Virus genome (UHGV): UHGV-1841366
Origin: a virus
Reading direction: 5' to 3' (one strand)
Length of the DNA stretch: 54,360 bases
The position numbers and the translations under genes are program-made. Below the pieces are notes generated by a model. The model had not been told where the DNA came from. It saw only the letters and a list, made by a program, of their open reading frames with translations, and searched no databases. Shown here in pieces: positions 6,040 through 47,233 of this stretch (the first letter of the stretch is position 1; each line of letters opens with the position of its first letter).

Positions 6040-6070
6040 GCCACCAGTTAACGCTGGTGGCTTCAAGTTT
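6040..6070 (+). terminator. hairpin containing a Chi octamer
   Basis: GCCACCAG / CTGGTGGC stem, then TTCAAGTTTT; GCTGGTGG at 6053-6060. Confidence 0.45.
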
Positions 6071-6077
6071 TGCTCTC

Positions 6078-6216
6078 ATCACCTCAGGTCAAATTTCCTC
6101 GTTTGCAACCTCAGGTCAATTTAAGAATGATATCACCTGTATCCCTGAACTTACTTCTTTTCTGCCTGTTTCATTCAGCGATGATTATTACATCGAAAAC
6201 AAACGAGGAATTAAAA
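6078..6216 (+). promoter_or_regulatory. leader region duplicated upstream of 5315 (copy 2)
   Basis: Direct repeats ACCTCAGGTCAA at 6081-6092 and 6107-6118; block homologous to 5236-5314. Confidence 0.55.
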
Positions 6217-7143
6217 ATGAAACCAGTATTTTTGGGGCGAATTGATATTAGTGAATTGTTTTCAGTTAGAGATGGGTTCCAATATGACTGTGATTGCCTT
6301 GAACTTAATGGTCTTGAACGTGAATACAGATTGGCTATTGTGAATGATGGTAAGAAGACATTTTCTGTCGAATGTTTTGAAAATACTTACTTTAAGCAGG
6401 TGTTGAGAATAAGACAGCATGTGGAGATGTCAATTCGGGAAAACATCAAAAATAAATGTGAGTTTCTTGTGGTTAAAAATGAAGCAGATGAAATAAACTT
6501 TGTTACGTTCACTGATAGTGGTCGATTGGCTATGCTGGAGCTATTTCAGCTGATCGTTTCTAATAACAGTATAACAGAAGCCTTGAACAGTCTTTCAACT
6601 ATAGTATCAAGAGAAAGAGAAAACACTGGCGCTTTAATTGTAGAGGAGCTAGATGGAATACTCGAGAAGATCAAGAATAAAGAGCTGATTATAGAATATG
6701 GCAAGGAAAGTAGGAAAAATAATTTACATTCAGCTTTTCACTCCCCATATGTTGAGCGTTTGAATGGTTTGGCTGCTTTTGTTAATTTGGACTTTAATAG
6801 ATTTTTTAGTTCTTTTTTTACAGAGTGTGGGCTTGTTATTGTTGAGGTAAATAATGAGAACGATGTCCCCAAAATTATAGTACATTCGATGCCTGATATA
6901 TCTCTCAATGAAATTGGGGACAAACTGGAGAATTTATACGATGTAAAAAGCATGGAAGAACTCATAGAGTATCTGGCCATAAATGCGGTAGCCATGGCTG
7001 ATAATGATGTGTTTGGGGTTGGTGCACTGCATGAAGGTTTTCTTGACGCCCTTGAGCTTTACGGGACTGCTCGCTGGTTTCTGTCAGGATTAGTGGATGA
7101 TGCACCTTTACTCATCAATACAGATTATTTTTATTCCAGTTGA
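6217..7143 (+). CDS. hypothetical protein
   Basis: In-frame ATG (MKPVFLGRI) of ORF 6070..7143 preceded by GAGGAATTAAAA; the upstream part of the ORF lies in the duplicated leader. AT-rich. Confidence 0.5.
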   Translation: MKPVFLGRIDISELFSVRDGFQYDCDCLELNGLEREYRLAIVNDGKKTFSVECFENTYFKQVLRIRQHVEMSIRENIKNKCEFLVVKNEADEINFVTFTDSGRLAMLELFQLIVSNNSITEALNSLSTIVSRERENTGALIVEELDGILEKIKNKELIIEYGKESRKNNLHSAFHSPYVERLNGLAAFVNLDFNRFFSSFFTECGLVIVEVNNENDVPKIIVHSMPDISLNEIGDKLENLYDVKSMEELIEYLAINAVAMADNDVFGVGALHEGFLDALELYGTARWFLSGLVDDAPLLINTDYFYSS

Positions 7144-7346
7144 AAACAAGGCCACCACTGCTGGTGGCCTTAAATGACCATCCTGTCTCCCGCAGGCTAA
7201 AAACACCAACCTCTTACCTCCAGGCAACCGACAAACCCACCTGTTCCCGTCCGGCTACCGCAACTTTCCACTTTGACGCCTTATTCGTACAACCATAATT
7301 AACACCAACAAGAGAACAATTTGTTATTTAGAATAAGGAATCAATC

Positions 7347-7829
7347 ATGAATTTTATCGCTACTGTAAACGCACCCGCACATGGCAATATCGCTGTAACG
7401 TTCTCTGACACTGAAAAACGAGTACTTGGTGCATGGCGCGACAATGAGACGGTAGAACTGTCAGCACAAGAAAAATGCATTATTGCACGCGACATCATTG
7501 GCAATCGTCGTTACTCGCGGGTATTTGAGAAAGCGTATGTGGTAAATTCTGGGTTCGGAACGTTCGTCTTTCCGGTGCGCTCCGGGCGATTCTGCCAGTC
7601 CAAGCTGATTGAGTTCGCTACGCAGATTTCTGTCTGGATTAAAACTCAATCGTCGTTCAAATTTTCCGACGATGAAGCAGTATCGCAGGGGATGCGGATC
7701 GCCAACAATGCAATTAAATGCAAAAACATTACGTATACCGCTGGCGTTGACACATGGAGACTGTTTTGCGCTAACTTTATGCTGAATGTATACGCAAGCA
7801 ACCGCATCCACATCCTTGATGGCGTGTAA
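7347..7829 (+). CDS. hypothetical protein
   Basis: ORF track; AAGGAA ribosome-binding site; variant palindromic motif at 7314-7326 upstream; terminator downstream. Confidence 0.55.
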   Translation: MNFIATVNAPAHGNIAVTFSDTEKRVLGAWRDNETVELSAQEKCIIARDIIGNRRYSRVFEKAYVVNSGFGTFVFPVRSGRFCQSKLIEFATQISVWIKTQSSFKFSDDEAVSQGMRIANNAIKCKNITYTAGVDTWRLFCANFMLNVYASNRIHILDGV

Positions 7830-7838
7830 CTGAGAAGA

Positions 7839-7860
7839 GGGCCAGAAACGGCCCTTTCTC
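7839..7860 (+). terminator. rho-independent terminator
   Basis: GGGCC / GGCCC stem with AGAAAC loop followed by TTTCTCT. Confidence 0.6.
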
Positions 7861-7955
7861 TATAGCCACCAGCTGCCGCAGGGAAATTTTCAGAAACGGC
7901 TAGGAACGCATTCATGAGCCGACGGGAAACGGCCAGGATTTTTTCGGGAAACGGC
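7845..7955. repeat. cluster of four GAAACGGC repeats
   Basis: GAAACGGC at 7845, 7893, 7926 and 7948 (last two 22 bp apart), flanked by a 9-bp inverted repeat CCACCAGCT (7866-7874) / AGCTGGTGG (7989-7997). Confidence 0.5.
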
Positions 7956-8365
7956 TACATTTGCCTTTATGTAGAAAAAACATCGGGAAGCTGGTGGAAT
8001 CCAATCAGCGGTTGTCGGACAGGTGAGCGGGGAAAATCATTATGACTCTCGTCACCTGAGACATCCAGATTTCTTTCATAGCGTAATCACATACGTGATT
8101 AAGTGGTGTGATTATGTGAAAAATCACGCGCACATAATACGCGAGCGGATACGGAACAAAACAAAATGCAGATTCGCGCCGACAAATAAACGCGGATCAT
8201 AAAGCAAGACTAAAAGCCAATGATTAACTATGCGCTATAGCGCAATATAACGCATTTTAAGCGCGTTAATGTGTTAAGTAATGGGTATGTACTGGCAAGG
8301 ATATAAAAGCGCGTCCATGGCGTTATTTTGGCGCTTATTTTTATGTTGTTGGAGTGAGTTAAAGA

Positions 8366-14226: not shown

Positions 14227-15786
14227 CTAATCTCGTTTCAGAACTCCAAAATCGAATGTGCCATCAATTGGCAATACACCTTCTGCAAAGCCAGGTGTGG
14301 TGTCGATGATGTGTTTTCGCTCATAAGAGTGAGACAACAGGTATTTGTTGCTAATGTCAATGAAATCAGTGATAAAACACACGTTTGCCTGATTTTTTTT
14401 TGCTCGTAAGCCACGACCGACACGCTGTCTCATTTCAACTTCTGCTTTCCCACCACCAGCAAGAATGACCGCGCCCACGCTTGGCACATCAACACCGACA
14501 TCCAGAATAGTCGAGCCTATTAAAACATCTATTTCGCCAGACGCTAAACTGTTCAGCTTTGCTTGCCTTGTCGTCTGGTTCGATTCCCCATAGATGAAGT
14601 CAACTCTAAGGCCGGACTCTTTCATCATCTCCATCAGGATTTGCCCGTGGCGTTTAAGACGAACCAGAGTCATGCAGTTGAGAGAATGTTGCTTATAGAG
14701 CAATGCTTCTCGTACTATGGCCTCGTTTCGTCCCAAATTATACACGATCCCCAACTGATAAGCTTTTTGGTAGGCAGTGCTCATACCTACCCTAAAATTG
14801 AGGTGTTTGTTGGCAAGTTCTGCCTTGATTCTGACCTCGTCTGGTTTGTAGGCAACTTTATGATAAAGGAAATATGGCTTTGCCAGAATACCTCTATCAA
14901 TCAGGTATTTTTCTGTAACTTTAATTTCAATTCGCCCGGCCACAGCCATCAGACGCATGTTGGCTTCTGTAGAAGCCTTCATGAACGGCGTTGCCGTAAG
15001 CGCCAGGCGATAGTCTGCGTTCGTACATAATCTGGCAATGTCATAGAAATTAGAGCCTGAAGACTCATGCGCCTCTTCCAGAATAAGAAGAGAGACACTT
15101 GAAAGGAAGCGCTTCACTAACTCCTGACGTTTGAGGTGGTAGCTCTTCTTATCTGGTGTTGCATCGCGTGGTGGTTCTTCGAGGAAACTTGCAATAGTTT
15201 GAACTGTAGCGACGTTGATATGTCGTGATACCTGAAACTCACCCGAGCCAATGATTCCAACCTTTTGGTCTTTTAACCACGGTTCGCCATTTTTGGCGCG
15301 GTAGTCGATGGATCTCTGGAAGTTTTCGGCCATCTGAAACATCAGAACAGATCGGGTTGTTAAAAATAATGTCATTCGACCGATACGTGCAGCTGCTTTG
15401 CAGGCAACGTTAGATTTCCCACCACCAGTAGCGATCTGCGCAATCATCATTCCCTCGCGAACCAGTGTTTCCACAGTCTGATCCTGATACGCATAATCAG
15501 GATTGTATGGGAATGGGTTAACCGCCGGATTTGGCTTTCCAAGCGCCGGGGCTTTGTCTTTGCGGATATGAACACATTTGATGCCCGCCTTGTTCAAGTT
15601 CGCCGCTACAGGCTTGGCAAAGCCAGCAGGGAACGAGTTTTTACTCCAGTGGAACATCGTGCTTGTGCCCTTCCAGTCGCCAGTGTCGACTTCGTAGCTC
15701 AACATCTGTTGCACCAGTTGCTTTACCTTGTCATCTGCGCCAGAAATAAGCGCATTTACTGCGTTAGATACAATCCGAACAGTCAT
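14227..15786 (-). CDS. SF2 DEAD/DEAH-type helicase
   Basis: 519 aa; Walker A ATGGGKS, motif II LEEAH, motif III LTATP, motif VI QRVGRGLR. Confidence 0.65.
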   Translation of the reverse strand: MTVRIVSNAVNALISGADDKVKQLVQQMLSYEVDTGDWKGTSTMFHWSKNSFPAGFAKPVAANLNKAGIKCVHIRKDKAPALGKPNPAVNPFPYNPDYAYQDQTVETLVREGMMIAQIATGGGKSNVACKAAARIGRMTLFLTTRSVLMFQMAENFQRSIDYRAKNGEPWLKDQKVGIIGSGEFQVSRHINVATVQTIASFLEEPPRDATPDKKSYHLKRQELVKRFLSSVSLLILEEAHESSGSNFYDIARLCTNADYRLALTATPFMKASTEANMRLMAVAGRIEIKVTEKYLIDRGILAKPYFLYHKVAYKPDEVRIKAELANKHLNFRVGMSTAYQKAYQLGIVYNLGRNEAIVREALLYKQHSLNCMTLVRLKRHGQILMEMMKESGLRVDFIYGESNQTTRQAKLNSLASGEIDVLIGSTILDVGVDVPSVGAVILAGGGKAEVEMRQRVGRGLRAKKNQANVCFITDFIDISNKYLLSHSYERKHIIDTTPGFAEGVLPIDGTFDFGVLKRD

Positions 15787-15868
15787 AAACCTCTTTCCTT
15801 AGTGCCTTTTGTATGTTATTTGGCTATTATAATAAGTAAGCAATTACTTAGTGGATTGTAGCAATAAA

Positions 15869-18775: not shown

Positions 18776-19042
18776 ATGACGTTAACCGACAAACAAAAGG
18801 ACATAATCAAAACGCTCAATCTCGGTTATGAGCGAGGTCATCTACTTGATCTGGACGAATTGCTTGAAGTTTTGCCGTACAAGACAACCAAGCAAAGTAT
18901 CCAGTTCTCAATTCGCGCTCTGATAAAAAAGGGGCTGGTGGAGAAAGGGCATACGCGTCAACGCAGTGACAATCGCTATCACCGCCGGACTCTTGGGTTA
19001 ACCACTTTAGGTCGAGCCAAAGCGAAGTTACTGGTGATGTAA
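18776..19042 (+). CDS. small putative DNA-binding protein
   Basis: 88 aa, basic; carries a Chi octamer at 18934-18941; followed by hairpin repeat copy B. Confidence 0.35.
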   Translation: MTLTDKQKDIIKTLNLGYERGHLLDLDELLEVLPYKTTKQSIQFSIRALIKKGLVEKGHTRQRSDNRYHRRTLGLTTLGRAKAKLLVM

Positions 19043-21153: not shown

Positions 21154-22728
21154 ATGGAATTGAACGACAAACAAATTAAGGATCTGGTGGCGCGACGCCA
21201 CCCGGAATACGAAAAGAAAAAAGAACATTGGGACTTCCTCGCCAGCACTTACGCTGGCGGGCGTGGTTGGTTTACAGACAATATCTTTCGTTACTTTAAA
21301 GAGGGAGATCAGGAGTTTAAGGAGAGAGTTGAGCGTGCTTATCGCTTCAACCACACTCGTGAGGTGGTAAACCTCATCAACAAATATCTCTTTAAAGAAG
21401 ACATTCATAGAAATATCGAAGAGGCACCAGAGCAGATCCGCAATTTCTGGAAACGTGCGACTCGCCAGAATGCCTCTATTGACTCATTTATGGCCGCTAT
21501 TGATTTGCAGTCGTCTATTTACGGTCGCATATGGGTTGTTGTCGATAGCACGATGAGTGGTGATGTTGAGTCAGTAGCTGACGAGAAAAAGAAAGATGCT
21601 CGCGCCTACGCCTACTGGATTTCACCTCAGCAAATGCTGGATGTGGCATGGGACGACGACGGGAATATGTTGTGGGCGTTAATTGTGGAAGTCGCTCGTG
21701 ATGACGCAGATCCTTTTACTTCTACAGGTCAGGAATACCAACGTTATCGTCTGTGGACACAAAATACGTGGTATCTGTTCCGTGAGGAAGTGAAGAAGGG
21801 CGCTGGTGGAGCAGGTCGTCGTCAGGCAAAAGTTATTTTAGAGGATAGCGGTGCGCATAATCTCGGCGTAGTTCCGGTGTTTCCTGTTGATTGTATTGGA
21901 GAAAGTGAATCACCGTATTTCAGCCCATCGTTGATCGATGATATCGCTTATCTTGATCGTGCGGTTGCAAACTATCTGTCAAACCTTGATGCCATTATTC
22001 AGGATCAGACATTTAGCCAGTTGGCTATACCGGTACAGTCGCTTTTACCTGGTGATGAAAACCACACTAAAGTGCTTGAAATGGGCACAAAGCGAGTCTT
22101 CACCTACGATTCTGAAGGTGGAAACCAGCCGTTTTATCTGTCACCAGACCCGAAACAAGCTCAGATGATCATCACTACGATTAAGACGGTGATTAACGAA
22201 ATCTACCATTCAGTTGGTGTAGCTGGTGAGCGAACGAAGCAGGACAACGCACAGGGAATAGATAATTCATCTGGTGCCGCAAAAATGTATGACTTCCAGC
22301 GTGTAAATAGCTTACTCGTCACAAAAGCAGAACGTCTGGAAAGGGCTGAGCGTCAAATCATGCAACTGGTTGCGAAATGGATGGGGGTAGATCTGGACGA
22401 AGATCACTCATTAATTGCGTATCCAGAAAGTTTCGATATTCGTGGCCTTACTGATGAATTTTCTGTTGCCGAGAAACTGTCGTTACTTCAGGCACCGGAC
22501 TCTGTACGTCGTCACCAGATGGAAATGCTGATTGAGAAGATTTTCCCGAACATCACTGAGGCGATGAAGAAGGAATTTGATAAAGATCTCTTGAATTTTC
22601 CGCCAAAAAATGATCTAAATACCCTTGAAAATAAGTCAGCACTTACTTATGATCAAGGCGCAGCCCAAGAAAGCGGGCAAGATCAACCCCGAGGGAATGG
22701 GGACTCATCTACTCAAGAGAACGAGTGA
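21154..22728 (+). CDS. portal protein (putative)
   Basis: 524 aa immediately after TerL; size and position typical; no motif-level confirmation. Confidence 0.6.
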   Translation: MELNDKQIKDLVARRHPEYEKKKEHWDFLASTYAGGRGWFTDNIFRYFKEGDQEFKERVERAYRFNHTREVVNLINKYLFKEDIHRNIEEAPEQIRNFWKRATRQNASIDSFMAAIDLQSSIYGRIWVVVDSTMSGDVESVADEKKKDARAYAYWISPQQMLDVAWDDDGNMLWALIVEVARDDADPFTSTGQEYQRYRLWTQNTWYLFREEVKKGAGGAGRRQAKVILEDSGAHNLGVVPVFPVDCIGESESPYFSPSLIDDIAYLDRAVANYLSNLDAIIQDQTFSQLAIPVQSLLPGDENHTKVLEMGTKRVFTYDSEGGNQPFYLSPDPKQAQMIITTIKTVINEIYHSVGVAGERTKQDNAQGIDNSSGAAKMYDFQRVNSLLVTKAERLERAERQIMQLVAKWMGVDLDEDHSLIAYPESFDIRGLTDEFSVAEKLSLLQAPDSVRRHQMEMLIEKIFPNITEAMKKEFDKDLLNFPPKNDLNTLENKSALTYDQGAAQESGQDQPRGNGDSSTQENE

Positions 22729-29412: not shown

Positions 29413-32400
29413 ATGTCACAAAACGTAGAGTTTATCCTGTCGCTGGAAGACAAACAGTTTACAGCGACAATCGATCGTGCGGGGAAACTGCTTACTCGAT
29501 TTGGTGAGCAGGTAACAAAGCCTGCTCAAAAAATCCAAACCTTTGAACGCTCTTTGGGTTCGGTCGCCCGTATCATTGGCGTTCTGGAAAGCAAGCTCGA
29601 TTCTACGGCAGACAAACTACAGGATGTAGCTGCCGGTTTTGAGCTTGCTTCAGATGCTACGCGTAAAATGCGTGGCAACATCACCAGCCTCAATTCTGGT
29701 CTTAAAGCCCTGATTGAGCGCGTCGATACGACAACTTCTTCAGTAGATAAACTCACCGCGTCATTACGTAAAGTGCAATCAGAGCTAAATGATTTCTCTG
29801 ATTGGGCGACCTATGCAAGCAAAAGCGCAAGCCGCTTTGGTACGGAGGTAAAAGAAGCCTCTGCGTCCGTGAGTGGTATGAATACGCGCCTTAATACCAC
29901 GACGAAGCGACTCAGTAATTGGGGCGTCACAACGAGCCAGGCTGCCGAGGGGCTGAAAAAGGTTCGTGAGCAGATGGACGAAGTTATCGGACGTCAGCAA
30001 CTGATTAGCAAGCCGGTACGCGTTCGTACATCTGGAAATGGCGATGGTGGTAGCGGTAGCGGTAGCGGGCAGCGTAGCGGCGCTTCTGGCCATAGAGGTA
30101 AAAGTAACGAAGGAGGTATGTTCTCTGGTCTTCGTGGCAACATTTTCCTGCTTGGCGAGATCGGAGATGCAGCCAGAACGGTTACTGACATCATGTTTGG
30201 GTGGCAGAAACCTATTGTTGAAGCTGCGGCCGAAATGGAACGTATGCGGGTGATGCTTCGAGGGTTGAATAAGGAGAAGTCCAACCCTGGCCAGGCTGCT
30301 GCTGATGATATGAAGTACATCGTAGACATGGCTCAAAATGCGCCGTTCGCGATGCAGGCGTTAACAGACTCCTTCGTGAAGTTTCGTTCTGCTGGCTTAG
30401 ATCCAACCGATGGTTCTCTAAAGGCGCTGGTGGACTCCGTTGCTCGTTTTGGTGGGGATAGCGAACTTCTGAAGCGTGCATCCATTGCTATTCAGCAAAT
30501 GTCCGGTAAGGGCGTCGTGTCAATGGAAGAGCTACGTCAGCAATTAGGTGAGGCGATTCCGACAGCAATGAACGCAATGGCCAAGGCTGCTGGTCTGACA
30601 ATGGGCGAGTTAACTAAAGCTGTAGCATCTGGAACGGTAGAAGCCAAAAACGCACTGGCACTTATGTTCAAAGAGTTGAAGATGCAGAACGAGGGAGCTG
30701 CGTCCGAAATGATGAACACATTTACCGGTACGTTGGCGCAAATGAAGACAGCCTTTACGCTGTTCGCGGACAAAGTAGGCCAGACTGGTTATTTGTCTTC
30801 TTTAAGAGAGGGAATGAAAGAACTCACCTCCCTGATGAATAGCGCAGGGGGTACATCTTTTGCTCACTCGTTGGGAAGTGGATTGACAACGGCTGTGGAT
30901 GGCTTGCGTGACCTGGCGAAATGGCTGATTAAAAACCAGGAGCTTGTTGTCACTTTCGGCAAAGCCGTCGCTGTAACGATGGCCTTCAGACTCCTCAAAT
31001 CGGGGATTTCTGGTGTCATCGGCACTGCTAATAGCATGATCAGCACCTTTGCTACGGTATCCACCACAATACAGGGGACATTTGATCTTGCGACGACAGC
31101 CGTTAAACGCTTCAATCGAGCCTCGCGCATGGGACTATCTACCATCCCAGCATTGATTTTTGCTATTCGCAATGCATTTGCTGGCTTGACTGCGTTCATG
31201 GCTGCAAACCCTATAGGATTCTTCTTTACTGCTGCGGTAACGGCGGTTTCGACGCTGATCTGGCACATGAGCAGTCTGAGGAAGAAAGTCGAAGACGTTG
31301 TAAACAAAGTCAGAGAAATCCCTGAAGCGATGACGCAGGCAGATCGCGCGATACTGGAAAGCGAACTGAGCAAGAAAGATCGAGAGATCGCCAGACTGGA
31401 AAAAGAAGTCGAGACTGGCAAAACCTTGCATTTTTCAGCATACACGGGACCGTACGAAGTTGGTGTCGATGTTGACGACAGCAAAAAGAAACTGGAAAAA
31501 ACGCGAAAAGAAAGAGAGGAAGTCGCCAAAGCTCTTGATGGCGGCATAGCCGAAACCACCAAACAAAGCATTACTAAGAAATATAGAGAGGATATTGATG
31601 CGGTCAACCAGAAAGGGAATGCATTAATAGCCTCACTCGCCAAAGAGATAGAAAGACTCACCAAAAGCAATGAGAAAATTGCCGCGCGGTCGGACTTGTC
31701 CGACCACGAAAAAAGCAAATTAAGGGCAGAAAACAACGCAGAACTTGGACGTTTGTACGCCCAGGCCGACGAGCAAAAACTCAAAGGGTATAAAGCTCGT
31801 TATGAGAAGGGGCTTGGTGAACTCGCCACATACTCAGAGGCGCTCAAAAAGGCCCAAGAGTCGAACGATATGCAGGGGCAAAAAGAAGCCCAGACAAAGA
31901 TAGACTCCACCACCGAGGCTTTGAAGATTGTAAAAGAGGGGATGGAGAACCTTGAAATCAGTCTTAGCGTGAAAGCTGGGGACGGCTTGGTTTCTATTAA
32001 TGGCGGTAAAATTGGTGAGTTTTCAAGCACACCAGTTGATGCTAATTCCAAAACTATGACTGGTTTTTGGAAACAGCAGATGGACTCTAAAAGGTATCAA
32101 AGAGTCAATCTCGATGGTTCCGCATTATACGACTTACAAGGTCAACCTGTTGTTGGGCCTCGACAACTCAAGGAGCAATTAAGACAGAAGAAAATTTACG
32201 GTGATGTGAAATTAGAGCAGTTGTCAGAAAATGACCGCATCGCAGTAATTAAGACTCTGACAAAAGCTCGTGAACTTGATGCTGAAGCAGCGGATAAGGC
32301 AGCAAACCGTACCGCAAAAGCAGCCGAGAGAGCAGCCAAGAAAGAACAGGCAGCGCAACAGAAACTGGCAGCCGGATACCAGAAGGCTCTGGACAAAGCC

Positions 32401-33987
32401 GATCAGCTTATGGGGCAAATGGGGGAAAGCTCTAAGGCTACGGTATCGTTTGATCAGTCTCTTCGCGATACAACGAAATCGCTGACAGATTTGGCTAATG
32501 CGGTTCCTAACGAGTTCATCACTCAAGAGATGATCGACAAGGCGAAAAAACGTCTTGAAGACCTCAAAAATGCGACACCTGAATATCGCGAGATGTTTAA
32601 TCGCCGCAATGTTGAGCAGATGATCTCCACTTGGGCACCGGAGGCGGATTCCATTATTAGTGCTGGCTATACGCCGTCTCGTGAAGAGAAAGTTGCTGAT
32701 TTCGAAGACACCTACAACCGTAATCTTAAAGCATTGATTGATTTACGGAAAGCTGCGATTGAGTCAGGCACAGCATCACAAAGCCAGATTGAGTTGTTCG
32801 GTAAAAAGATCAATCAACTTATTGCTGCTGGCAATACCGCGCTTATTAAAGAGACGGGGACTGCGACGCAGAAGTTGGCACTGGAATACGAAAACCTGGC
32901 AGAGCAGATCGAAAGCACCTGGACGGATTTGTTTAGTGGCTTAACTGATGTCCTGACTGATTTCGTTATTAACGGGAAGATGAGCTTCTCCAGCCTGTCT
33001 CAGTCCATTTTGAAAGATATCACCAATATGGTCGTGAAGTCGCAGATCACGCTACCTCTGATGAACATGTTGGGGATGGGAACCACCGCAGCTGGTAGTT
33101 CGCAGAGTGGTAATTTGCTGACCGGGGTTGCTTCCGCCGTTGCCAATCAAGGGGTACGAATGGGCAACACTGTTAATGGTGACAAGTCGGTAGGAGAAGC
33201 CACGAAGGAGACGTCCAGTTCGGTAACTGGATTGGGGCAAACGACACAGCAGACCACCAGCGCAATTGGTACTGCAACAAATGCGATTGGTAGCTGGGTA
33301 TCAGGGCTATTTGATAGCACTGAAGCCAAAGATACCGAGACAAAAGCCGTGAAGGACTCCATCTTCTCGATGCAGAACCTCAGCTCTGTTACCGGAGCGC
33401 TATCTGCCGCTTTTGCAATGCTTGGGGCTAACGCTTCCGGCTCTGGTAATAAGTGGTTGAATTTTGGAGCAACGGTTGCAACTGGCCTTGTTTCCGTCTG
33501 GGCTGGTGGTGGTTTTGATAAACTACTGTCAAGCTCTTCGAGAACAACTTCCGGCTTTAATAATCTGACCGGCCCAGCTGCTGACGGCACGAATGGCATC
33601 CCTGCAATTCCGAAGTTCGCAAATGGTGGCATATTCGGAAAAGACGGTGTGATTCCGCTTCGAGCGTATCAGAAAGGTGGTATTGCCAACTCTCCCCAAT
33701 TGGCGTTGTTTGGAGAAGGTTCTATGAATGAGGCGTATGTTCCATTGCCTGATGGTCGAACGATCCCCGTAACGCTCAGTACCGATGGTATGAGTGGAAA
33801 CGGAAACGTTCTTTCTCCGGTATCAATTGAGATCAACGTCCATAGTGACGGCAGCACAACTGAATCCGGTGATAAAGAAAGCATATGGAACAATGCCGCT
33901 CAACGGGTGAAAGCTGTCGTGCTTGAGACTATCGCTCAAGAGAAACGCCCTGGCGGATCACTCAATCCAAACACTCAACGTAACTAA
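29413..33987 (+). CDS. tail tape measure protein
   Basis: About 1524 aa, alpha-helical/coiled-coil rich with a Gly-rich segment; ATG at 29413 chosen for the AGAGGA ribosome-binding site (ORF track starts at TTG 29392). Confidence 0.8.
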   Translation: MSQNVEFILSLEDKQFTATIDRAGKLLTRFGEQVTKPAQKIQTFERSLGSVARIIGVLESKLDSTADKLQDVAAGFELASDATRKMRGNITSLNSGLKALIERVDTTTSSVDKLTASLRKVQSELNDFSDWATYASKSASRFGTEVKEASASVSGMNTRLNTTTKRLSNWGVTTSQAAEGLKKVREQMDEVIGRQQLISKPVRVRTSGNGDGGSGSGSGQRSGASGHRGKSNEGGMFSGLRGNIFLLGEIGDAARTVTDIMFGWQKPIVEAAAEMERMRVMLRGLNKEKSNPGQAAADDMKYIVDMAQNAPFAMQALTDSFVKFRSAGLDPTDGSLKALVDSVARFGGDSELLKRASIAIQQMSGKGVVSMEELRQQLGEAIPTAMNAMAKAAGLTMGELTKAVASGTVEAKNALALMFKELKMQNEGAASEMMNTFTGTLAQMKTAFTLFADKVGQTGYLSSLREGMKELTSLMNSAGGTSFAHSLGSGLTTAVDGLRDLAKWLIKNQELVVTFGKAVAVTMAFRLLKSGISGVIGTANSMISTFATVSTTIQGTFDLATTAVKRFNRASRMGLSTIPALIFAIRNAFAGLTAFMAANPIGFFFTAAVTAVSTLIWHMSSLRKKVEDVVNKVREIPEAMTQADRAILESELSKKDREIARLEKEVETGKTLHFSAYTGPYEVGVDVDDSKKKLEKTRKEREEVAKALDGGIAETTKQSITKKYREDIDAVNQKGNALIASLAKEIERLTKSNEKIAARSDLSDHEKSKLRAENNAELGRLYAQADEQKLKGYKARYEKGLGELATYSEALKKAQESNDMQGQKEAQTKIDSTTEALKIVKEGMENLEISLSVKAGDGLVSINGGKIGEFSSTPVDANSKTMTGFWKQQMDSKRYQRVNLDGSALYDLQGQPVVGPRQLKEQLRQKKIYGDVKLEQLSENDRIAVIKTLTKARELDAEAADKAANRTAKAAERAAKKEQAAQQKLAAGYQKALDKADQLMGQMGESSKATVSFDQSLRDTTKSLTDLANAVPNEFITQEMIDKAKKRLEDLKNATPEYREMFNRRNVEQMISTWAPEADSIISAGYTPSREEKVADFEDTYNRNLKALIDLRKAAIESGTASQSQIELFGKKINQLIAAGNTALIKETGTATQKLALEYENLAEQIESTWTDLFSGLTDVLTDFVINGKMSFSSLSQSILKDITNMVVKSQITLPLMNMLGMGTTAAGSSQSGNLLTGVASAVANQGVRMGNTVNGDKSVGEATKETSSSVTGLGQTTQQTTSAIGTATNAIGSWVSGLFDSTEAKDTETKAVKDSIFSMQNLSSVTGALSAAFAMLGANASGSGNKWLNFGATVATGLVSVWAGGGFDKLLSSSSRTTSGFNNLTGPAADGTNGIPAIPKFANGGIFGKDGVIPLRAYQKGGIANSPQLALFGEGSMNEAYVPLPDGRTIPVTLSTDGMSGNGNVLSPVSIEINVHSDGSTTESGDKESIWNNAAQRVKAVVLETIAQEKRPGGSLNPNTQRN

Positions 33988-34029
33988 CTATCGACTGCCC
34001 CAGACGGGGCAGTCTCACAAGGATGTGAG

Positions 34030-34365: not shown

Positions 34366-34447
34366 CTATCTGGATAAGTAAGTTCTAATTTACTATTATT
34401 ATGGCGCTGACAGGATGTTAGCGCCTACTTATTTCAAGGATGAAACA

Positions 34448-36517: not shown

Positions 36518-36534
36518 TCAAGGATTTTTTGGAC

Positions 36535-39500
36535 ATGGAACAGTTCAAGCAAAAAAAATTACCGCTTCTTATTGGCGGCGCTGGTGGTAAAAAAAGTAGC
36601 AAAAGCTCCAGCCGTACTCCGGTTGAAGCTGACGATACCGTGAATTCTCGTGCAATGGCCGCTATCCTCGATCTTCTTGGGGAAGGGGTAATTGGCGGCT
36701 TAGTAAATGGCGCAAGATCTATTTTTGTCGACGATTTACCGATTGTAAATGAAGACGGCTCCTCCAATTTTAGCGGAATTACTTGGGATTTTCGCGACGG
36801 TTCACAAGACCAGACTCCAATGTCCGGCTTTGATTTCGTTGAAACACCCAAATCCGTCAATATTCAATTAAAAAAAACACATTATGTAACGGTTTCAATC
36901 GATAACGATGAAGCTGATCGTGTTCGTGTCATCATGAAGTTTCCTTCTTTGCGAAGCGTAGATAAAAAAACTGGTGACACGAACGGCACGACTGTTGAGT
37001 ACAAGTTCCAGATAGCGAATGGCGACTCAACATTTGTAGATGTGGTTGCAGAAGGTGAAAAAAGCGTTGGCATTAAGCTAACTGCAAAGAAGACAGGTGT
37101 TTATTACCGTAGTTATGAACTGAAGTTACCTAAGCCTGGGCGCGCGTATAAGGTGCGTGTTGTCCGTATTACCGATGACAACAACAGTCAGTATCTCTAT
37201 AACGACACATGGGTAGACTCAATAGGTGAGATTGTTGATACACCGATGAACTACCCAAACTCTGTGCTGGTGGGGTTGAAGGTTAATTCTGAGCAGTTTG
37301 GCAACTCTATGCCATCTCGTTCGTATTTGGTGCGAGGATTAAAAATTCGTGTGCCGTCAAACTACAACGAATCCAGCAACACTTATGTGGGCGTATGGGA
37401 TGGCACTTTTAAGCTGCTGTCTTCTTCGAACCCTGCGTGGATTCTCTTTGATTTGCTTACCAATGCTCGATATGGTCTTGGGCAATTCGTGTCGGAATCC
37501 ATGATTGACCTTGGCCAACTGTACCAGATTGGTCGATATTGTGACGAAGAGGTCGATGATGGCTTTGGGGGTAAAGAGAAACGCTTTGCAATCAATACGC
37601 AGATCACCAGTCGACAGGACGCATACCGATTAATTCAGGATATTGCCGGTGCATTCCGCGGCATGGTGTTTTGGGCTGGTGGCATGGTTAACATCATGCA
37701 GGATAGCCCATCAGATCCGGTAATGATGTTTACTAACTCCAACGTCAAAGATGGATTGTTTTCCTATAAAGGTTCTGCACGTAAAGATCGTCCATCAGTT
37801 GCGCTCGTGACTTATAACAACAAGGAGGACGGTTATAAGCAAAATATCGAGTACGTCGAAGATCAGGAAGCAATGCGCCGTTATGGTGAGCGCAAAACAG
37901 AAGTCGTAGCATTTGGCTGTACAAGTCGAGGACAGGCTCACCGAGTTGGTTTGTGGCTTTTGTATACCGCCAGAATGGAGTCGGATGTAATTACATTTAC
38001 TGCCGGTTTAGACGCCTCATTTCTGATGCCTGGTGAAACCGTTCTGATTCAGAATAAATATCGCGCGGACAAACGTAACTCCGGTCGAATTATGGAGTTT
38101 ACCAAAAACAGCATCACTCTCGATGCGCCTGTGTCGTTAACTAAAAGCGGCAGCTTTATTCGGATACTGAATCAGGAAGGCAAAATCGTTGAACGCGATG
38201 TTCTTGAAACTGGCGAAAACATAACAAAGGTTACGTTTTCAAAAGCCCTGACGTCAGCGGAAACGCCTGTTTTGAGCGGTGTCTGGACAATTACAGAACC
38301 AGATCTCGAACCTATGCGCGTTCGCATCGTTAACATCGCGCAGGGGGAAACGCCGGGTAGCTTTGACATCACCGCTGTTGAGAACAATCCGACTAAATAT
38401 GAGGCGATCGACAATGGTGCAACGCTTATCCCGCAGAATACGACGGTATTGGACCCGACTTACTCGAAGCCGTCTAATTTGCAAATCACTGAAGGGACTT
38501 ATCTCTCAAGTCCGGGCAACCTGTCAGTAAAATTGACTGCAACATGGGAAGGAAAATCTCCAGAATATTGGATCAGCTGGCGACGTTCAGATGAAAGCAA
38601 TGTATCGAACTGGCAATCGGCGCGTGTAACCGAAGAGCAATACGAAATCGTTAATGTTGCGGAGAATGGACGCTACGACTTCCAGCTGTATGCGGTTTCA
38701 TTCAACGGTAAAAAAACAGAGATCATCAGCACCGTTTATCAGGTGCAGGGCACAATGACTCCACCTGATTCGCCAACGTCATTAACGGCAGTTGGGGACT
38801 ATCGAAATGTGATACTGAATTGGATTAATCCAGATTCGGTGGACCTTGATCATATTAATGTTTACGCATCCAAGGTTAACAATCTGGATACAGCGAAACT
38901 GATCGCAGAGTCTGCAAGCACCACCTTTACACATGCTGGTCTTGGGGATAACGAAACGTGGTATTACTGGGTGCGAGCATCGAACAAGCGCGGCATGTTA
39001 AGCCCTCCGAACTCAAACTTGGGTACAGAGGCGACAACTCGCGATGTATTGTCGTTCCTGACTGGCAAAATTACATCTTCCGAGCTTGGTCAGGCCTTGA
39101 CTGAGGAAATTAGCTCAAAAGCCTCTCAGGAGGCGGTGAACTCCATCTATGAACAGATTGATGAAAGCCTGAAGAACCTTGATGGCAAGTTTTCAGAGAC
39201 AGATCGGCGGCTTGAAGAAGCTCAAAACGATCTTAAAACGGAGGTTTCCAGCACCGTCAGCAAGGTAGAAGACGCTCTTAAAGAGGTTGAAGACTCTAAC
39301 GCTGCTTTAATTCAGCTACAGGAGACTGTCTCCGAGCAGGGCAAGGCTGTGGCTGGTGCAGTCGAAGCGGCCCATGCTGCGTTCGAAAATGCTTCTGCAT
39401 TGATTGCCGAAGAACGTGAGGCTCGAGTAGAAGGAGATATGGCTAACGCTAAACAGATTGAGACAATGAAATCTTCTGTTGACGATAGTGTTGCGGCAGT

Positions 39501-40695: not shown

Positions 40696-40788
40696 TAGTA
40701 GAAAAAAAAATTTATATCGGTAAAAATAAGTAGGTATTTACTTTGTGGTGGGCAAGAATAGCCCACCAAAACAAGGAGCATATTCAAC

Positions 40789-43323
40789 ATGTGGTACAGG
40801 GAAGGTACTATCACATTTACACAGGGTAGCAATACTCTGGTTGGGGCAGGGACAGCCTGGAACGTAACCGCTAATGGTGTGTTGCCGGGTATGATCGTCG
40901 TTGGCCCCGATAATAAACTGTATGAGATCAAGCGCGTAACCAGTGACACGAATATTGTTCTCTCAGAACCTTATACCGGTGAAACTCAGTCTGAAGTTCC
41001 GTGCCGAATCATTACGACCTATGAGGGCGACTTAACGCAGTTTAGCGCACGCTTTACTGCACTAATGTCGCGTATGTCGGCTGATTCCAAGTCCATGCGT
41101 AGTTGGCTGACTGCCGTGGATGAAATCACAATTGAACGTGAAGATGGTACGGAATTAACCATAAAATCCCTTACTCAGATCGTTAATGAGCACAACAAAA
41201 ACGTAGAGTGGTATAAAAATAACACTGATGAAATTGATTCCGCTGGCACCTATGCGCGTGAGGCCGCGAGTAGCGCGACAACTGCTGCGCAAAACGCTGA
41301 GCGCGTTGAACAGATCGCGCAAAATATTGCTAACAGTATAAGTACGGCCCAGCAGGCTGCCACAGATGCTGCAAATAGTGCCGGTGCCGCGAAAACGTCA
41401 GAAACGAATGCGGCAGCGTCACAACAATCAGCAGCCACTTCTGCATCCACCGCGACCACGAAAGCGTCAGAAGCAGCCTCCTTAGCCAGGGATGCGTCGG
41501 CTTCAAAAGAGGCGGCAAAATCATCAGAAGCGAACGCGAAAGCGTCGGAAACCAGTGCCGAATCCTCAAAAACGGCAGCCGCATCGTCAGCCAGTTCGGC
41601 AGCGTCATCGGCATCGTCTGCGTCGGCTTCAAAAGATGAAGCGACTAAACAGGCGTCAGCCGCAAAAGATAGTGCTATGACTGCATCCTCGAAAGCAACA
41701 GAGGCGACAGGCAGTGCAACGGCTGCCTCTCAGAGCAAAACTGCTGCTGAATCCGCTGCGACCCGTGCGGAAGCTGCTGCTGCTCGTGCTGAAGAGATTG
41801 CCGGTGCAGTTGCGATGGAAGACGCAAGCCTTACAACTAAAGGTGTTGTGAAACTTAGCAGTGCGACCAACAGCACTTCAGAGTCACTGGCTGCAACCCC
41901 AAAAGCGGTAAAAGCTGCATATGACCTGGCTGACGGGAAATACACTGCGCAGGATGCAACGACAACCCAGAAAGGGATAATCCAGCTAAGTAGCGCCATC
42001 AATGACGAATCTGAAACGCTTGCTGCAACGCCAAAAGCGGTAAAAGTCGCCTATGACAATGCCGAAAACCGCCTGCAGAAAGATCAGAATGGCGCTGATA
42101 TCCCTGACAAGAACGCATTCAGGGAAAGTCTTGGGCTGGGGGATGCCGCCACCAAAAATATCGGTACTACAGCCGGCACCGTAGCGGCAGGAAACGACTC
42201 CAGACTGGTTAACGCACTGCAAAAATCCACTTCAGCCCTGGCCGTGGACCTGAATACACTGGGGAGTCTGGAAGTCCAGGGAACTTATTATCAGCCAGCG
42301 GATAAAGGGGCAACAGCTGCGCATCATTACCCGGTGCTCCGGTCCGGGACATTGCAGGTTCTGCCTGGTGTCTGGGGAGGCTGCCAACAGGAATATACGA
42401 GCTGGAATCCACCGAGAAAATTTGTGAGAACACTGACAGGCTATTTCAAAGGTAATGGCCCGTGGTCGCCGTGGGTGGAGGTGGCGTTTACCGACAGTAC
42501 AGTGGCTGTTGCGACCGCAGCGACAAAATTGCAGACGACCAGAAGAGTTGGTGGTGTGGATTTTGACGGGACATCAGATATCAGCCTCCCCGGAGTGGAT
42601 GCGCCAGGCGATCAGGATACGACAGGTAATGCGGCTACTGCGACCAAATTGCAGACGCCAGTGAATATTAACGGTACAGCGTTTGATGGTAGCCACGATA
42701 TCACGATCCGGGATGAAGGTGCATTTCAGAAGCCTGCGCTCTTTATACATTCCTCTGTAGATTTGAACACGCTAGGTGGTCCAGGTAGCGAAGGTTTTTA
42801 TTTTCAGAAATACGGGAGTGTGGCGACAGTTGATCATCATTACCCAACCAACAGACCAGGCACGCTGACTGTACTGCGTGGTGGATTTGACGGATGCCAG
42901 CAGGAATATTTTAGTGTTAATCCTCCAAGGAAATTTTTCAGGGCATTAACAGGAGCCTGGAACGGACAGGATGGCCCATGGTCAGACTGGTTTGAGATTC
43001 AGACTCTGGGAGGTGGAAGTGGAGGTACGCAGGTTTTTGGAACCGAATATCAAAATAAATCATCAGAACGCGGTCCGGGTGTTACATACACTAATAGTCG
43101 ATCGTATCCGATTATGGTGATCATTGATGGATACTACGGAGGTGGTGACGGTTTTCATCTTTTTATAAACGATGAAATATTGATATCCCCATCTACATCT
43201 TCAGGACAAAATGACGACCAATTTCAGTTTACTTTCATCGTTCCGGCAGGCGCAACGTACATGATCTTTGAAAAAACTTTCGGTACGAATTTCCGTATTC
43301 ACACCTGGTTGGAGTTTTGTTAA
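40789..43323 (+). CDS. side tail fibre protein
   Basis: 844 aa; phage tail-fibre repeat pattern (KGIIQLSSAINDESETLAATPKAVKVAYD, twice), long Ala/Ser-rich low-complexity region, internally duplicated C-terminal blocks. Confidence 0.7.
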   Translation: MWYREGTITFTQGSNTLVGAGTAWNVTANGVLPGMIVVGPDNKLYEIKRVTSDTNIVLSEPYTGETQSEVPCRIITTYEGDLTQFSARFTALMSRMSADSKSMRSWLTAVDEITIEREDGTELTIKSLTQIVNEHNKNVEWYKNNTDEIDSAGTYAREAASSATTAAQNAERVEQIAQNIANSISTAQQAATDAANSAGAAKTSETNAAASQQSAATSASTATTKASEAASLARDASASKEAAKSSEANAKASETSAESSKTAAASSASSAASSASSASASKDEATKQASAAKDSAMTASSKATEATGSATAASQSKTAAESAATRAEAAAARAEEIAGAVAMEDASLTTKGVVKLSSATNSTSESLAATPKAVKAAYDLADGKYTAQDATTTQKGIIQLSSAINDESETLAATPKAVKVAYDNAENRLQKDQNGADIPDKNAFRESLGLGDAATKNIGTTAGTVAAGNDSRLVNALQKSTSALAVDLNTLGSLEVQGTYYQPADKGATAAHHYPVLRSGTLQVLPGVWGGCQQEYTSWNPPRKFVRTLTGYFKGNGPWSPWVEVAFTDSTVAVATAATKLQTTRRVGGVDFDGTSDISLPGVDAPGDQDTTGNAATATKLQTPVNINGTAFDGSHDITIRDEGAFQKPALFIHSSVDLNTLGGPGSEGFYFQKYGSVATVDHHYPTNRPGTLTVLRGGFDGCQQEYFSVNPPRKFFRALTGAWNGQDGPWSDWFEIQTLGGGSGGTQVFGTEYQNKSSERGPGVTYTNSRSYPIMVIIDGYYGGGDGFHLFINDEILISPSTSSGQNDDQFQFTFIVPAGATYMIFEKTFGTNFRIHTWLEFC

Positions 43324-45027: not shown

Positions 45028-45028
45028 T

Positions 45029-45416: not shown

Positions 45417-45424
45417 TACGAAGT

Positions 45425-45442: not shown

Positions 45443-45447
45443 GTACA

Positions 45448-45969
45448 TTATTCTTCGAACAATTTTTCGATAGATTTTGTTGGATAGAACAAAGATCGCT
45501 CGTTGTTTCCAATCAACTGGATAAAGCCCAGGCTTTTATAAAACGCCTTAGCCTTATCATTCAACGCCTCAACGAAGAGTCCATGAATACCAACAGCAAG
45601 AGAGGCGTTATACACAACACGCATAGCGTGTGTTACAAGCATTGAGCCAAACCCTTGACTTTGAAGAGGTTTGTCCAAAGCCAGTCTGCCCAAAGTAACA
45701 CTTGGCACATTCCGATAAGGCACCTTCTTTTGCTGGCTTCTTGAAGGTAAGGACTCCTTTTCAAAGCAGCTGCCTGACAAAGTGTAATACCCTAACACTT
45801 TGGGTCTGTCTTCTTTAGTGCAAAGCACATAAGCGCGAAGAATTTTTCCCTCATGCTGTCTTTTTAAGTGGTTGATTAAAAAGGAGTTTAGAGATTCTTC
45901 ACCGCAATCAAAGCCATTCAAATCATAATCTTTCTCTCCAGAGAAAATTTCTATCTTTATATTATCCAC
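45448..45969 (-). CDS. ataT: GNAT-family toxin of a type II toxin-antitoxin pair (AtaT/TacT/KacT-like)
   Basis: 173 aa; near-collinear match to the AtaT sequence as I recall it (DYDL..FDCGEE, VLGYYTL.GSCFE, IPSVTLGRLA, GIHGLFVEALN, FYKSLGF); 7-nt gap to the upstream antitoxin. Confidence 0.7.
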   Translation of the reverse strand: MDNIKIEIFSGEKDYDLNGFDCGEESLNSFLINHLKRQHEGKILRAYVLCTKEDRPKVLGYYTLSGSCFEKESLPSRSQQKKVPYRNVPSVTLGRLALDKPLQSQGFGSMLVTHAMRVVYNASLAVGIHGLFVEALNDKAKAFYKSLGFIQLIGNNERSLFYPTKSIEKLFEE

Positions 45970-45976
45970 GAGTAAA

Positions 45977-46246
45977 CTATTCCATGCTTTTCAGACGATC
46001 AGCAGCTCGTTTCAGCTTGTCGTTCGGTGCCGGAGGATTGCTTATAGCGTCCATAACCAGATTCCAGGATTCCTCATTCAGAACCAGTCTACGGTGTTGC
46101 TCTATAACTTTCACGGCACGTTCAGATGCACTGCTAACCATAAACTGAGTAATGCTCTGGTTAGACATTGCGGCAGCTTCCTCGATGATGCTTTTATCGT
46201 CATCGGTTAATCTCAAATCGATGCGCTGCTTTTTTAGTGCTGACAT
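45977..46246 (-). CDS. ataR: DUF1778-type antitoxin (AtaR/TacA-like)
   Basis: ATG at 46246 preceded by AGGAGG (ORF track begins upstream at 46285); MSALKKQRIDLRLTDDDKS...NEESW closely resembles AtaR as recalled. Confidence 0.7.
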   Translation of the reverse strand: MSALKKQRIDLRLTDDDKSIIEEAAAMSNQSITQFMVSSASERAVKVIEQHRRLVLNEESWNLVMDAISNPPAPNDKLKRAADRLKSME

Positions 46247-46434
46247 GTATTCCTCCTGATGGCCGTGATGTAGGAAGGCCATCAATCTCCTCTGTTCAAA
46301 CTGAGGTTTCGACTCAAAAATTACTTTAAAAGGCTATAGCCCATTACGTGTGCATTATCAAATTGTGTACGGCATATCACCGTACTTGTAATATAGAGGT
46401 CATTGTTACTTTTTTCAACAGACAAATACAAGCT

Positions 46435-46456
46435 GTGATTGCCAATTGTTAATCAC
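46435..46456. promoter_or_regulatory. operator-like inverted repeat GTGATT-N10-AATCAC
   Basis: In the 318-bp divergent region between ataR and parA; a second inverted repeat GTACGG-N8-CCGTAC lies at 46369-46390. Confidence 0.35.
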
Positions 46457-46516
46457 AACCTACCATTTAACCTTTACACCGCAGCCGTAGGCATTTAGGC
46501 TATATCACATATAAGA

Positions 46517-46529
46517 AAACAAGTTGTTT
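46517..46529. promoter_or_regulatory. palindromic motif AAACAA-N-TTGTTT (copy upstream of parA)
   Basis: Perfect copy 36 nt upstream of the parA start. Confidence 0.5.
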
Positions 46530-46564
46530 CAGACGATAATTATATACGCAAAGGGAACTCTCCA

Positions 46565-47233
46565 ATGACCAAGATCTTTGTGGTTGGCGGCACAAAGGGC
46601 GGGCCTGGCAAATCCACCGTTGCCCAGCAAATTGCCGTTTGCCTGAAAGTCAAAAAGAAGAAGAAGGTTTATATCACTGATATAGATATTCAGCGCACGA
46701 CAACAAGCTGGTGTGAAGACCGTCGACAGAACGAAGACCTTGAGCTGATTCCTTTTGCATACGTTCAGGATGACATCATTAAGCACCTAAAATCACTTCA
46801 GGGTAGAGCTGAGTTTGTAGTGGTAGATGCTGGTGGCTTTGACTCCGAAATTCAGCGACAAGCGATGCTGATGGCTGACGTTATCATTATCCCGCTTCGT
46901 CCTAAGCGTCGTGATTTGAAATCTCTGCGTGACATCGATCCTATTATCGACAATGTTCGTAATGTAAACGATAAAGTGAAGGTCCGCGCGGTCATGAACC
47001 AGTGCCCGGCTTTGCCATCACAAGTGTCTCGCATTCTGGCGGCTAAAGAGATTGTCGAGACGTTTGGCATCGAGTCTGCGCCTGTCAATCTATATAACCG
47101 CAACGTCTACGATGATGCGGAAGAGTCTGGTCGTTCTATCTTTGAAATGACCGGTAGCGAGCGCGACAAAAAGGCGGAAGCCGAGTTTGAAGAATTTGTA
47201 GATTATCTGTTGAGTCTGGAGGAAGAAGAATAA
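46565..47233 (+). CDS. parA: ParA-family partition ATPase (small, type Ib-like)
   Basis: 222 aa; deviant Walker A GGTKGGPGKST; no N-terminal DNA-binding extension. Confidence 0.75.
   Translation: MTKIFVVGGTKGGPGKSTVAQQIAVCLKVKKKKKVYITDIDIQRTTTSWCEDRRQNEDLELIPFAYVQDDIIKHLKSLQGRAEFVVVDAGGFDSEIQRQAMLMADVIIIPLRPKRRDLKSLRDIDPIIDNVRNVNDKVKVRAVMNQCPALPSQVSRILAAKEIVETFGIESAPVNLYNRNVYDDAEESGRSIFEMTGSERDKKAEAEFEEFVDYLLSLEEEE

Follow-up and report, generated by a model that had tools for sequence, protein, structure and literature searches.

Why a stretch of phage DNA should be crowded with Chi, the octamer GCTGGTGG recognised by the host recombination enzyme RecBCD, and what the orientation of the copies means, are the questions raised by virus genome UHGV-1841366, of which 54,360 nucleotides were analysed (the window). 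Once it has entered at a double-stranded end, RecBCD that reaches 5'-GCTGGTGG-3' from the 3' side of the octamer ceases to degrade that strand and loads RecA. An initial sequence-only reading of the window had stated this polarity correctly and had claimed that Chi is about tenfold over-represented and co-oriented on the + (top) strand, suggesting adaptation to a RecBCD-carrying enterobacterial host and a preferred direction of exonuclease entry. The excess proved larger than claimed, specific to the exact octamer and common to enterobacterial relatives, whereas the orientation calls for a different account.

Identity of the window is about 95% with Escherichia phage CMS-2020a, 93-95% with PhiR41_1 and Cyrano (pLF82), about 80% with Salmonella phage SSU5 and about 79% with Klebsiella phage-plasmids; on these figures the window is assigned to a phage-plasmid of the SSU5 type from enteric bacteria. 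The relatives exist as circular plasmids; Cyrano, kept at 5.5 copies per cell, produces virions (PMC9928086). The G+C content is 45.5%, about 86% of the window is coding, and the + strand carries 40 of the 47 genic kb. To the right of an accessory and immunity region lie a ParB-like pair, then terminase, portal, capsid and tail genes, lysis genes, ParA, and DnaB and primase, the large terminase being of the Terminase_6N/Terminase_3 type. The ParB-like pair and ParA thus stand beside terminase, portal, capsid and tail genes, the combination that marks a phage-plasmid, and the organisation of the family, with ParA/ParB, DnaB, primase and an IncFIB-type RepA, is not lambdoid.

An exact search of both strands found 17 Chi in the window, 12 on the + strand and five on the - strand (Table 1), or one per 3.2 kb. 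All ten coordinates in the sequence-only reading (eight + and two -) are exact matches on the strands named, and the copy at 14453 does lie within a minus-strand gene, on the sense strand of a helicase. The total fell short by seven sites (+ 2400, 30426, 36580 and 37266; - 1866, 2454 and 33254), three of which, at 1866, 2400 and 2454, fall to the left of the range of 6053-46836 that it had given. Dinucleotide shuffling predicts 1.03 copies for both strands together (maximum 4 in 100 shuffles), and Markov models of orders 0-3 predict 0.65-2.9 on the + strand and 0.46-1.2 on the - strand. The recount with a Markov expectation that had been proposed as a check therefore gave more sites rather than fewer, with orders 0-3 far below the observed numbers, and Chi is the commonest of all octamers in the window. 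Expectations on the + strand rise to 5.1 at order 5 and 9.6 at order 6, but these models were set aside because, over 54 kb, the Chi copies themselves dominate the 6- and 7-mer counts; tests of neighbouring words and of codon spelling took their place.

Coding constraints do not explain the excess, which is aimed at Chi itself and not at a related context. Ten of the 11 genic copies read in the sense direction of the gene that holds them, in two frames only, G-CTG-GTG-G (Leu-Val) and GCT-GGT-GG (Ala-Gly-Gly). Shuffling synonymous codons within genes gave an expectation of 2.35 sense-strand sites against the ten observed (P about 0.001), and permuting codon order gave 1.45 against nine for genic sites on the top strand and 0.51 against two on the bottom strand; a four- to sixfold excess is left by these codon-aware nulls. 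Six of the ten Ala-Gly-Gly tripeptides are spelled as Chi (1.03 expected from codon usage), as are four of the 40 x-Leu-Val-(G..) contexts (0.63 expected), which amounts to five to six times the codon-usage expectation, and the same skew in spelling recurs in SSU5, CMS-2020a, Klebsiella pJN2-26 and P1. Intergenic DNA (7.3 kb, G+C 0.41) holds six Chi where 0.13 are expected, against seven one-mismatch sites in total.

The comparison with similar words points the same way. Exact Chi outnumbers each of its 24 one-mismatch neighbours in the window, the commonest of which occurs six times, and the ratio of exact to neighbouring words is 1:3.8 against 1:25.7 expected. Set against the top neighbour, the counts are 31 to 16 in SSU5, 24 to 14 in CMS-2020a, 27 to 14 in pJN2-26 and 50 to 14 in P1, so that Chi leads every neighbour by about 1.7-3.6 fold in five genomes. 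Relative to the codon-aware expectation for the sense strand, Chi is enriched 4.1-fold and the pooled neighbours 1.4-fold. Among the 30,000-43,000 sense-strand octamers ranked against the synonymous-shuffle null, Chi is 10th in the window, 3rd in SSU5, 6th in CMS-2020a and 14th in pJN2-26, and no other word recurs near the top across these four.

Complete relatives carry 24-31 Chi, 16-19 on the + strand and 8-12 on the - strand: 19+/12- in SSU5 (one per 3.3 kb), 16+/8- in CMS-2020a (one per 4.5 kb) and 17+/10- in pJN2-26 (one per 4.1 kb). On the + strand Chi ranks second among octamers in SSU5 and fourth in CMS-2020a. The excess is common to Escherichia, Salmonella, Klebsiella, Cronobacter and Enterobacter relatives, whereas a related segment from an Acinetobacter phage-plasmid, which shares the gene set and has a G+C content of 0.42, holds a single Chi in 43 kb; because it is present in the former and lacking in the latter, the excess follows the hosts in which this Chi is used. 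The proposal of the sequence-only reading that the element is adapted to a RecBCD-carrying enterobacterial host is thus well supported by an enrichment that is Chi-specific, affects coding and non-coding DNA alike, and is shared by the enterobacterial relatives but lacking in the Acinetobacter one. Six of the nine alignable + copies are intact in SSU5 (octamer background 19%) and none of four - copies; in pJN2-26 (background 14%) four of nine and two of four are intact. Of 22 four-fold degenerate positions within Chi, 16 match SSU5, where the background is 46% (P = 0.011). Host-derived DNA was considered as a source of the Chi copies and rejected, since the majority fall within conserved genes for virion, partition and replication functions.

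PHROG, Pfam and PADLOC searches of about 37 non-structural proteins encoded in the window turned up no anti-RecBCD family, such as Gam or Abc2, and the annotations of SSU5 and pJN2-26 name no anti-RecBCD gene. It is probable, at roughly three chances in four, that selection has enriched the genome in the enterobacterial Chi, which would switch RecBCD from degrading to recombination-promoting in an element with no detectable inhibitor. A Chi every 3-4 kb or so would limit the destruction of linear or broken copies by RecBCD, candidate ends being a broken plasmid fork, a rolling-circle tail, a terminase or restriction cut, and the ends of injected virion DNA. At Chi the enzyme would be turned to RecA loading, the break would be channelled into recombinational repair, replication restart or circularisation, and selection would keep Chi at chromosomal density. 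The counts and comparisons show an enrichment restricted to exact Chi, built by the choice among synonymous codons and by siting copies in intergenic hairpins, and shared by enterobacterial relatives; we infer both the interaction with RecBCD and the stage of the life cycle that would benefit.

Several observations weigh against selection for RecBCD-active Chi. Since the one-mismatch neighbours are mildly enriched, context bias may account for a small fraction of the excess. Four-fold sites in Chi are identical to Klebsiella in nine of 20 cases against a background of 40%, which is not significant, and individual copies are weakly held and turn over while density stays. That the sites act on RecBCD is an assumption based on their sequence identity and on the hosts of the relatives (E. 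coli, Salmonella and Klebsiella), and an unrecognised RecBCD inhibitor might be present among the many orphan genes. Moreover, SSU5, pJN2-26, pHCM2 and others encode, in the part of the genome outside the window, a gp32-like single-stranded DNA-binding protein (SSB), a 5'-3' exonuclease, a RecA-like recombinase and an SbcCD-like nuclease pair, the window itself holding no phage recombination module (SSB, exonuclease, strand-annealing or strand-exchange protein). Because of these genes the family breaks the published rule by which the lack of a Rec module goes with many Chi, and its need for RecBCD is not obvious.

Orientation has to be considered at two scales. Within the window, + copies do outnumber - copies as the sequence-only reading had it, but the 12:5 split is not significant (two-sided binomial P = 0.14); the top strand has nine of the 11 genic copies, where codon permutation would give it a share of 0.74 (P = 0.74), and the intergenic copies divide 3:3. 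The + excess arises mostly because Chi is written into genes that are nearly all on the + strand, and the preferred direction of exonuclease entry drawn from it does not follow from the window.

At the level of the family, orientation does appear to be under selection, judging from the relatives. When SSU5, CMS-2020a and pJN2-26 are rotated so that the plasmid rep gene comes first, the final 20 kb or so ahead of rep hold 0+/5-, 0+/2- and 0+/5- Chi, respectively, with the genes there on the + strand. Slices of 43.5 kb were compared across six lineages (SSU5, CMS-2020a, pJN2-26, pHCM2 of S. Typhi, a Cronobacter plasmid and an Enterobacter plasmid). Between dnaB and ligase the pooled counts are 17 top-strand Chi and one bottom-strand Chi; over the 12 kb or so from dnaE to rep all six genomes lack top-strand Chi and have two to six on the bottom strand; beyond rep the pooled counts are eight and two. 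The copies between dnaE and rep are antisense to top-strand genes, and codon permutation predicts only 0.13-0.23 per genome, a 15-40-fold enrichment (P < 0.002 for five of the lineages, 0.008 for the other). Codon permutation is less conservative than the synonymous-shuffle null, under which P = 0.0075 in two of three genomes; that support is only moderate because the latter null keeps proteins that already encode antisense Chi.

One polarity switch lies at rep and the second adjoins a tyrosine-recombinase gene 12-18 kb away, the window lying almost wholly in the top-strand domain and stopping just short of the second switch. The switch at rep, outside the window, is of the sense that forks moving out from an origin would produce; the origin is assumed to be adjacent to rep. 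In the relatives GC skew shows no switch at the domain borders and stays positive, and GC and TA skew at four-fold sites, used as a marker of replication direction, gave an ambiguous outcome. A search of the literature found no description of Chi enrichment or polarity in SSU5-type elements. The comparison of orientation with related phages, which the sequence-only reading had suggested, thus reveals a polarity structured in domains. This goes some way to rescuing the directional inference, but with a switch at rep the pattern would fit replication from the plasmid origin better than entry from a packaging end. Tentatively, SSU5-type elements may carry chromosome-like, orientation-selected Chi with an origin-type switch at the IncFIB-type rep and a terminus-type switch 12-18 kb away, the window being part of a long top-strand 'replichore'. 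If so, RecBCD repair of broken plasmid forks would shape the genome of a temperate phage despite its own RecA-like genes, and replication of the plasmid prophage would be strongly asymmetric.

It is unlikely that the + excess reflects a single preferred direction of RecBCD entry from the packaging or virion end, as in lambda and phage LLS. In those phages, drawn with the terminase genes on the left, top-strand Chi are active for RecBCD entering the end left free by terminase (PMC12315714), and here too the + strand is the strand of the terminase and late genes, so that + copies have the 'active' orientation. The conserved + Chi at 18934 ends 298 bp upstream of the gene in the small-terminase position, and the block at 15.8-54.4 kb has eight top-strand genic Chi and one on the bottom strand. 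Against this, the split equals the coding-constraint null (P 0.69-0.74); the intergenic copies divide evenly; there is no clustering near a putative end of the kind seen in LLS, the densest cluster (1866-7997) being mixed (4+/3-); whole genomes hold 8-12 bottom-strand Chi; and the all-antisense domain adjoins rep, not the terminase genes. The literature searched documents no packaging mode or DNA ends for the SSU5 family.

The intergenic copies raise a separate doubt. Three Chi sit in strong palindromes sharing the stem GCCACC/GGTGGC; these are the only GCCACC..GGTGGC hairpins in the window (0.03 expected), and all three hold a complete Chi. The sequence-only reading had placed three of its listed copies in hairpins beside AT-rich genes, which holds for 6053 and 7160, whose hairpins (9-10 bp palindromes) flank the AT-rich orphan gene 6070-7143 (G+C 0.37); the true third copy is 2454, which it had not listed, and neither 7866, just after a terminator hairpin, nor 7990 lies in one. 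It might be argued that such copies are incidental, terminator stems rich in GC or palindromes at mosaic junctions happening to resemble Chi, and indeed three of the six intergenic copies share the stem, one with a terminator-like T-run, and hairpin 7148-7171 lies exactly at a homology breakpoint. We regard this as quite improbable. The stem yields five of the eight Chi bases, the other three being supplied by each hairpin, partly from its loop, which would put the chance at about 1/32 per hairpin and about 3e-5 for three; orthologous hairpins in Klebsiella, PhiR41_1 and E. albertii hold complete Chi too, and the three other intergenic copies lie outside hairpins. The hairpins at 2450 and 7148 recur with their Chi in PhiR41_1 and Klebsiella. 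In E. albertii plasmids (L013, 5346-5375) the stem of the 7148 hairpin is identical, the 4-nt loop is GCAG against CTGC in the window and Chi is on the opposite strand, a difference that looks like the inversion of the loop or hairpin.

Least credible is the view that there was no selection for Chi as such and that the excess arose passively from a usage of codons, codon pairs or oligonucleotides like that of the host, in coding DNA rich in GCTGG or CTGG. The order 5-6 expectations do come near the observed + count, the one-mismatch neighbours are slightly enriched and other CTGG words such as GCTGGCGC are also common in SSU5. Yet such high-order models are fitted largely to the Chi copies, exact Chi tops every neighbour in five genomes, and neither the Ala-Gly-Gly and Leu-Val spelling, the copies in intergenic DNA of G+C 0.41, the antisense copies between dnaE and rep nor the Acinetobacter relative of similar G+C content conforms to it.

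The accessory region is a mosaic. An insertion of 3.1 kb (4014-7147) is missing from CMS-2020a and PhiR41_1 and common to Escherichia albertii plasmids of about 62 kb; it carries two orphan genes, at 5315-6034 and 6070-7143, for which Pfam, PHROG and PADLOC gave no match, and a toxin-antitoxin pair of the RelE/ParE type at 4531-5053. Homology to CMS-2020a, PhiR41_1 and Klebsiella restarts at 7148-7150, the first bases of hairpin 7148-7171. Near Chi 7990, homology to SSU5 stops at 7978 and to Klebsiella at 7955, and the segment 2024-2513, around Chi 2400, is missing in CMS-2020a. Breakpoints coincide with, or come to within 12-35 bp of, the copies at 7160 and 7990, but with some ten of them in 16 kb this association of Chi with recombination breakpoints is only suggestive.

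Seven of the 17 Chi (4+/3-) fall within the 6.1 kb at 1866-7997 of this region (post hoc P = 0.0016), several of them within 12-60 bp of homology breakpoints between relatives, and the orthologous region of Klebsiella pJN2-26 has eight Chi in about 5 kb (25.1-30.2 kb of L008). The insertion also contains two short tandem repeats, one just upstream of the orphan gene 5315-6034 (5096-5156, a 27-nt unit repeated 2.3 times) and one inside it (5919-5967, a 21-nt unit repeated 2.3 times, 96% matches). PhiR41_1 has methionyl-tRNA synthetase and Mrp-like genes in its accessory region (1546-3579), where the window has other cargo. The minus-strand block comprises an HNH-endonuclease-like gene (12186-13166) and a DEAD/DEAH helicase (14227-15786) similar to the PbeA defence protein; an ABC-type ATPase pair (17214-18766) shows weak similarity to mad3 and mad8. 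Other strongly strand-skewed octamers occur in the coding DNA of the window, namely GCCAGAAC (9+/0-), AAATATCG (9+/0-) and GATAAGGC (9+/3-), which are dispersed (e.g. 12535, 20373, 24620 ... 52416), are not repeats and are not top words in the relatives.

Table 1. Chi copies, hairpins and landmarks of the window, and the antisense-Chi domains of relatives (dG, folding free energy; z, z-score).
Feature	Position	Strand	Context	Kept in
Chi	1866..1873	-	Intergenic	CMS-2020a, PhiR41_1
Chi	2400..2407	+	72-aa gene (2227-2445), Leu-Val frame	SSU5, Klebsiella pJN2-26
Chi	2454..2461	-	5' arm and loop of terminator-like hairpin 2450-2472	PhiR41_1, Klebsiella
Chi	6053..6060	+	Intergenic, 3' arm of hairpin 6040-6061; in window-specific insertion 4014-7147	
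Chi	7160..7167	+	Intergenic, loop and 3' arm of hairpin 7148-7171	
Chi	7866..7873	-	Intergenic, 8 nt past terminator hairpin	CMS-2020a, Klebsiella, E. albertii
Chi	7990..7997	+	Intergenic, outside hairpins	CMS-2020a, PhiR41_1
Chi	14453..14460	-	Sense strand of helicase gene 14227-15786 (-), Ala-Gly-Gly frame	
Chi	18934..18941	+	88-aa gene (18776-19042), Leu-Val frame	CMS-2020a, PhiR41_1, SSU5
Chi	21802..21809	+	Portal gene, Ala-Gly-Gly frame (GCT-GGT-GG)	CMS-2020a only
Chi	30426..30433	+	Tape-measure gene, Leu-Val frame	CMS-2020a, PhiR41_1, SSU5
Chi	33254..33261	-	Antisense in tape-measure gene	CMS-2020a, PhiR41_1; not SSU5
Chi	33502..33509	+	Tape-measure gene, Ala-Gly-Gly frame	CMS-2020a, SSU5
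Chi	36580..36587	+	Tail-tip J-like gene, Ala-Gly-Gly frame	Window-specific
Chi	37266..37273	+	Tail-tip J-like gene, Leu-Val frame	CMS-2020a
Chi	37675..37682	+	Tail-tip J-like gene, Ala-Gly-Gly frame	All three lineages
Chi	46829..46836	+	ParA partition gene, Ala-Gly-Gly frame	All three lineages
Hairpin	2450-2472		Chi 2454 (-); terminator-like, followed by TTTTT	
Hairpin	6040-6061		GCCACCAGTTAACGCTGGTGGC; Chi 6053 (+); dG -16.9, z -3.75	
Hairpin	7148-7171		AAGGCCACCACTGCTGGTGGCCTT; Chi 7160 (+); dG -18.8; perfect 10-bp stem	
Accessory and immunity region	1-15.8 kb		Left part of window	
ParB-like pair	15851-17217			
ParA	46565-47233			
Antisense-Chi domain, SSU5 (L002-L004)	46.6-60.5 kb (native)		Outside window	
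Antisense-Chi domain, pJN2-26 (L009/L010)	94.9-107 kb		Outside window	
Antisense-Chi domain, L014, L015, L016	20.0-32.3 kb		Outside window	

The abundance of Chi predicts how an element handles the main double-strand-end nuclease of its host, by inhibiting it or by using it. SSU5-type phage-plasmids, which are common in clinical Enterobacteriaceae and are matched by hundreds of plasmid records, appear to belong to the class that uses it despite their own recombination genes, which both extends and complicates the rule derived from lambdoid phages. It would follow that SSU5-type elements are recBCD- and recA-dependent in stability, induction and infection, and that linear SSU5-type fragments are unusually resistant to RecBCD, with a bearing on how CRISPR systems acquire spacers and on recombineering. 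The polarity domains of the family may also offer a way of inferring the direction of plasmid-prophage replication from sequence alone.

Chi richness is already known for P1 and for some lambda-like phages. Among Chi-rich lambdoid phages without a recombination module or RecBCD inhibitor, RecBCD aids growth and Chi are mostly in the active orientation (Zheng et al., 2025, PMC12315714; such phages are also the subject of Bobay et al., 2013, as cited there). The class represented by LLS resembles the window in having many Chi, mostly on the strand running from terminase to the late genes, no recognisable RecBCD inhibitor and enterobacterial hosts, and in both cases host RecBCD would be used rather than inhibited. 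The window element differs in being a phage-plasmid of 100-110 kb that is not lambdoid and whose family carries recombination genes, and it shows no clustering of Chi at one genome end as in that class. By the LLS criterion of at least eight active and at most six 'inactive' Chi, the counts of the window (12+/5-) stay within both limits, whereas the complete relatives (16-19+/8-12-) exceed the inactive limit.

A second comparison is with the E. coli chromosome, where Chi shows a leading-strand polarity that switches at oriC and at the terminus. The SSU5 family has a similar density (one Chi per 3-4.5 kb against one per 4.6 kb, or 1008 copies, in E. coli K-12; PMC12315714), and its relatives likewise switch polarity at rep, Chi lying on the top strand to the right of the gene and on the bottom strand to the left. 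The polarity domains of the family are nevertheless unequal (about 85 kb against 12-18 kb), unlike symmetrical replichores, and GC skew does not switch with them.

The case of the window is most like that of P1, a phage-plasmid reported to be rich in Chi (Lobocka et al., 2004). Counted directly, P1 has 50 Chi (31+/19-, one per 1.9 kb), its commonest octamer. Like the window element it is an enteric plasmid prophage with par and rep functions, with Chi on both strands and over-use of the Chi spelling; its growth is reported to need host RecA and RecBCD (PMC12315714, as given there from Sternberg and Hoess, 1983), and the literature searched held no experimental data on such dependence for the SSU5 family. 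P1 differs in having an unrelated myovirus genome and a different replicon, and no Cre-lox system, a feature of P1, was identified in the window. Chi density in the window is about half that of P1, and the SSU5 family, unlike P1, has its own genes for a RecA-like protein, an SSB and an exonuclease.

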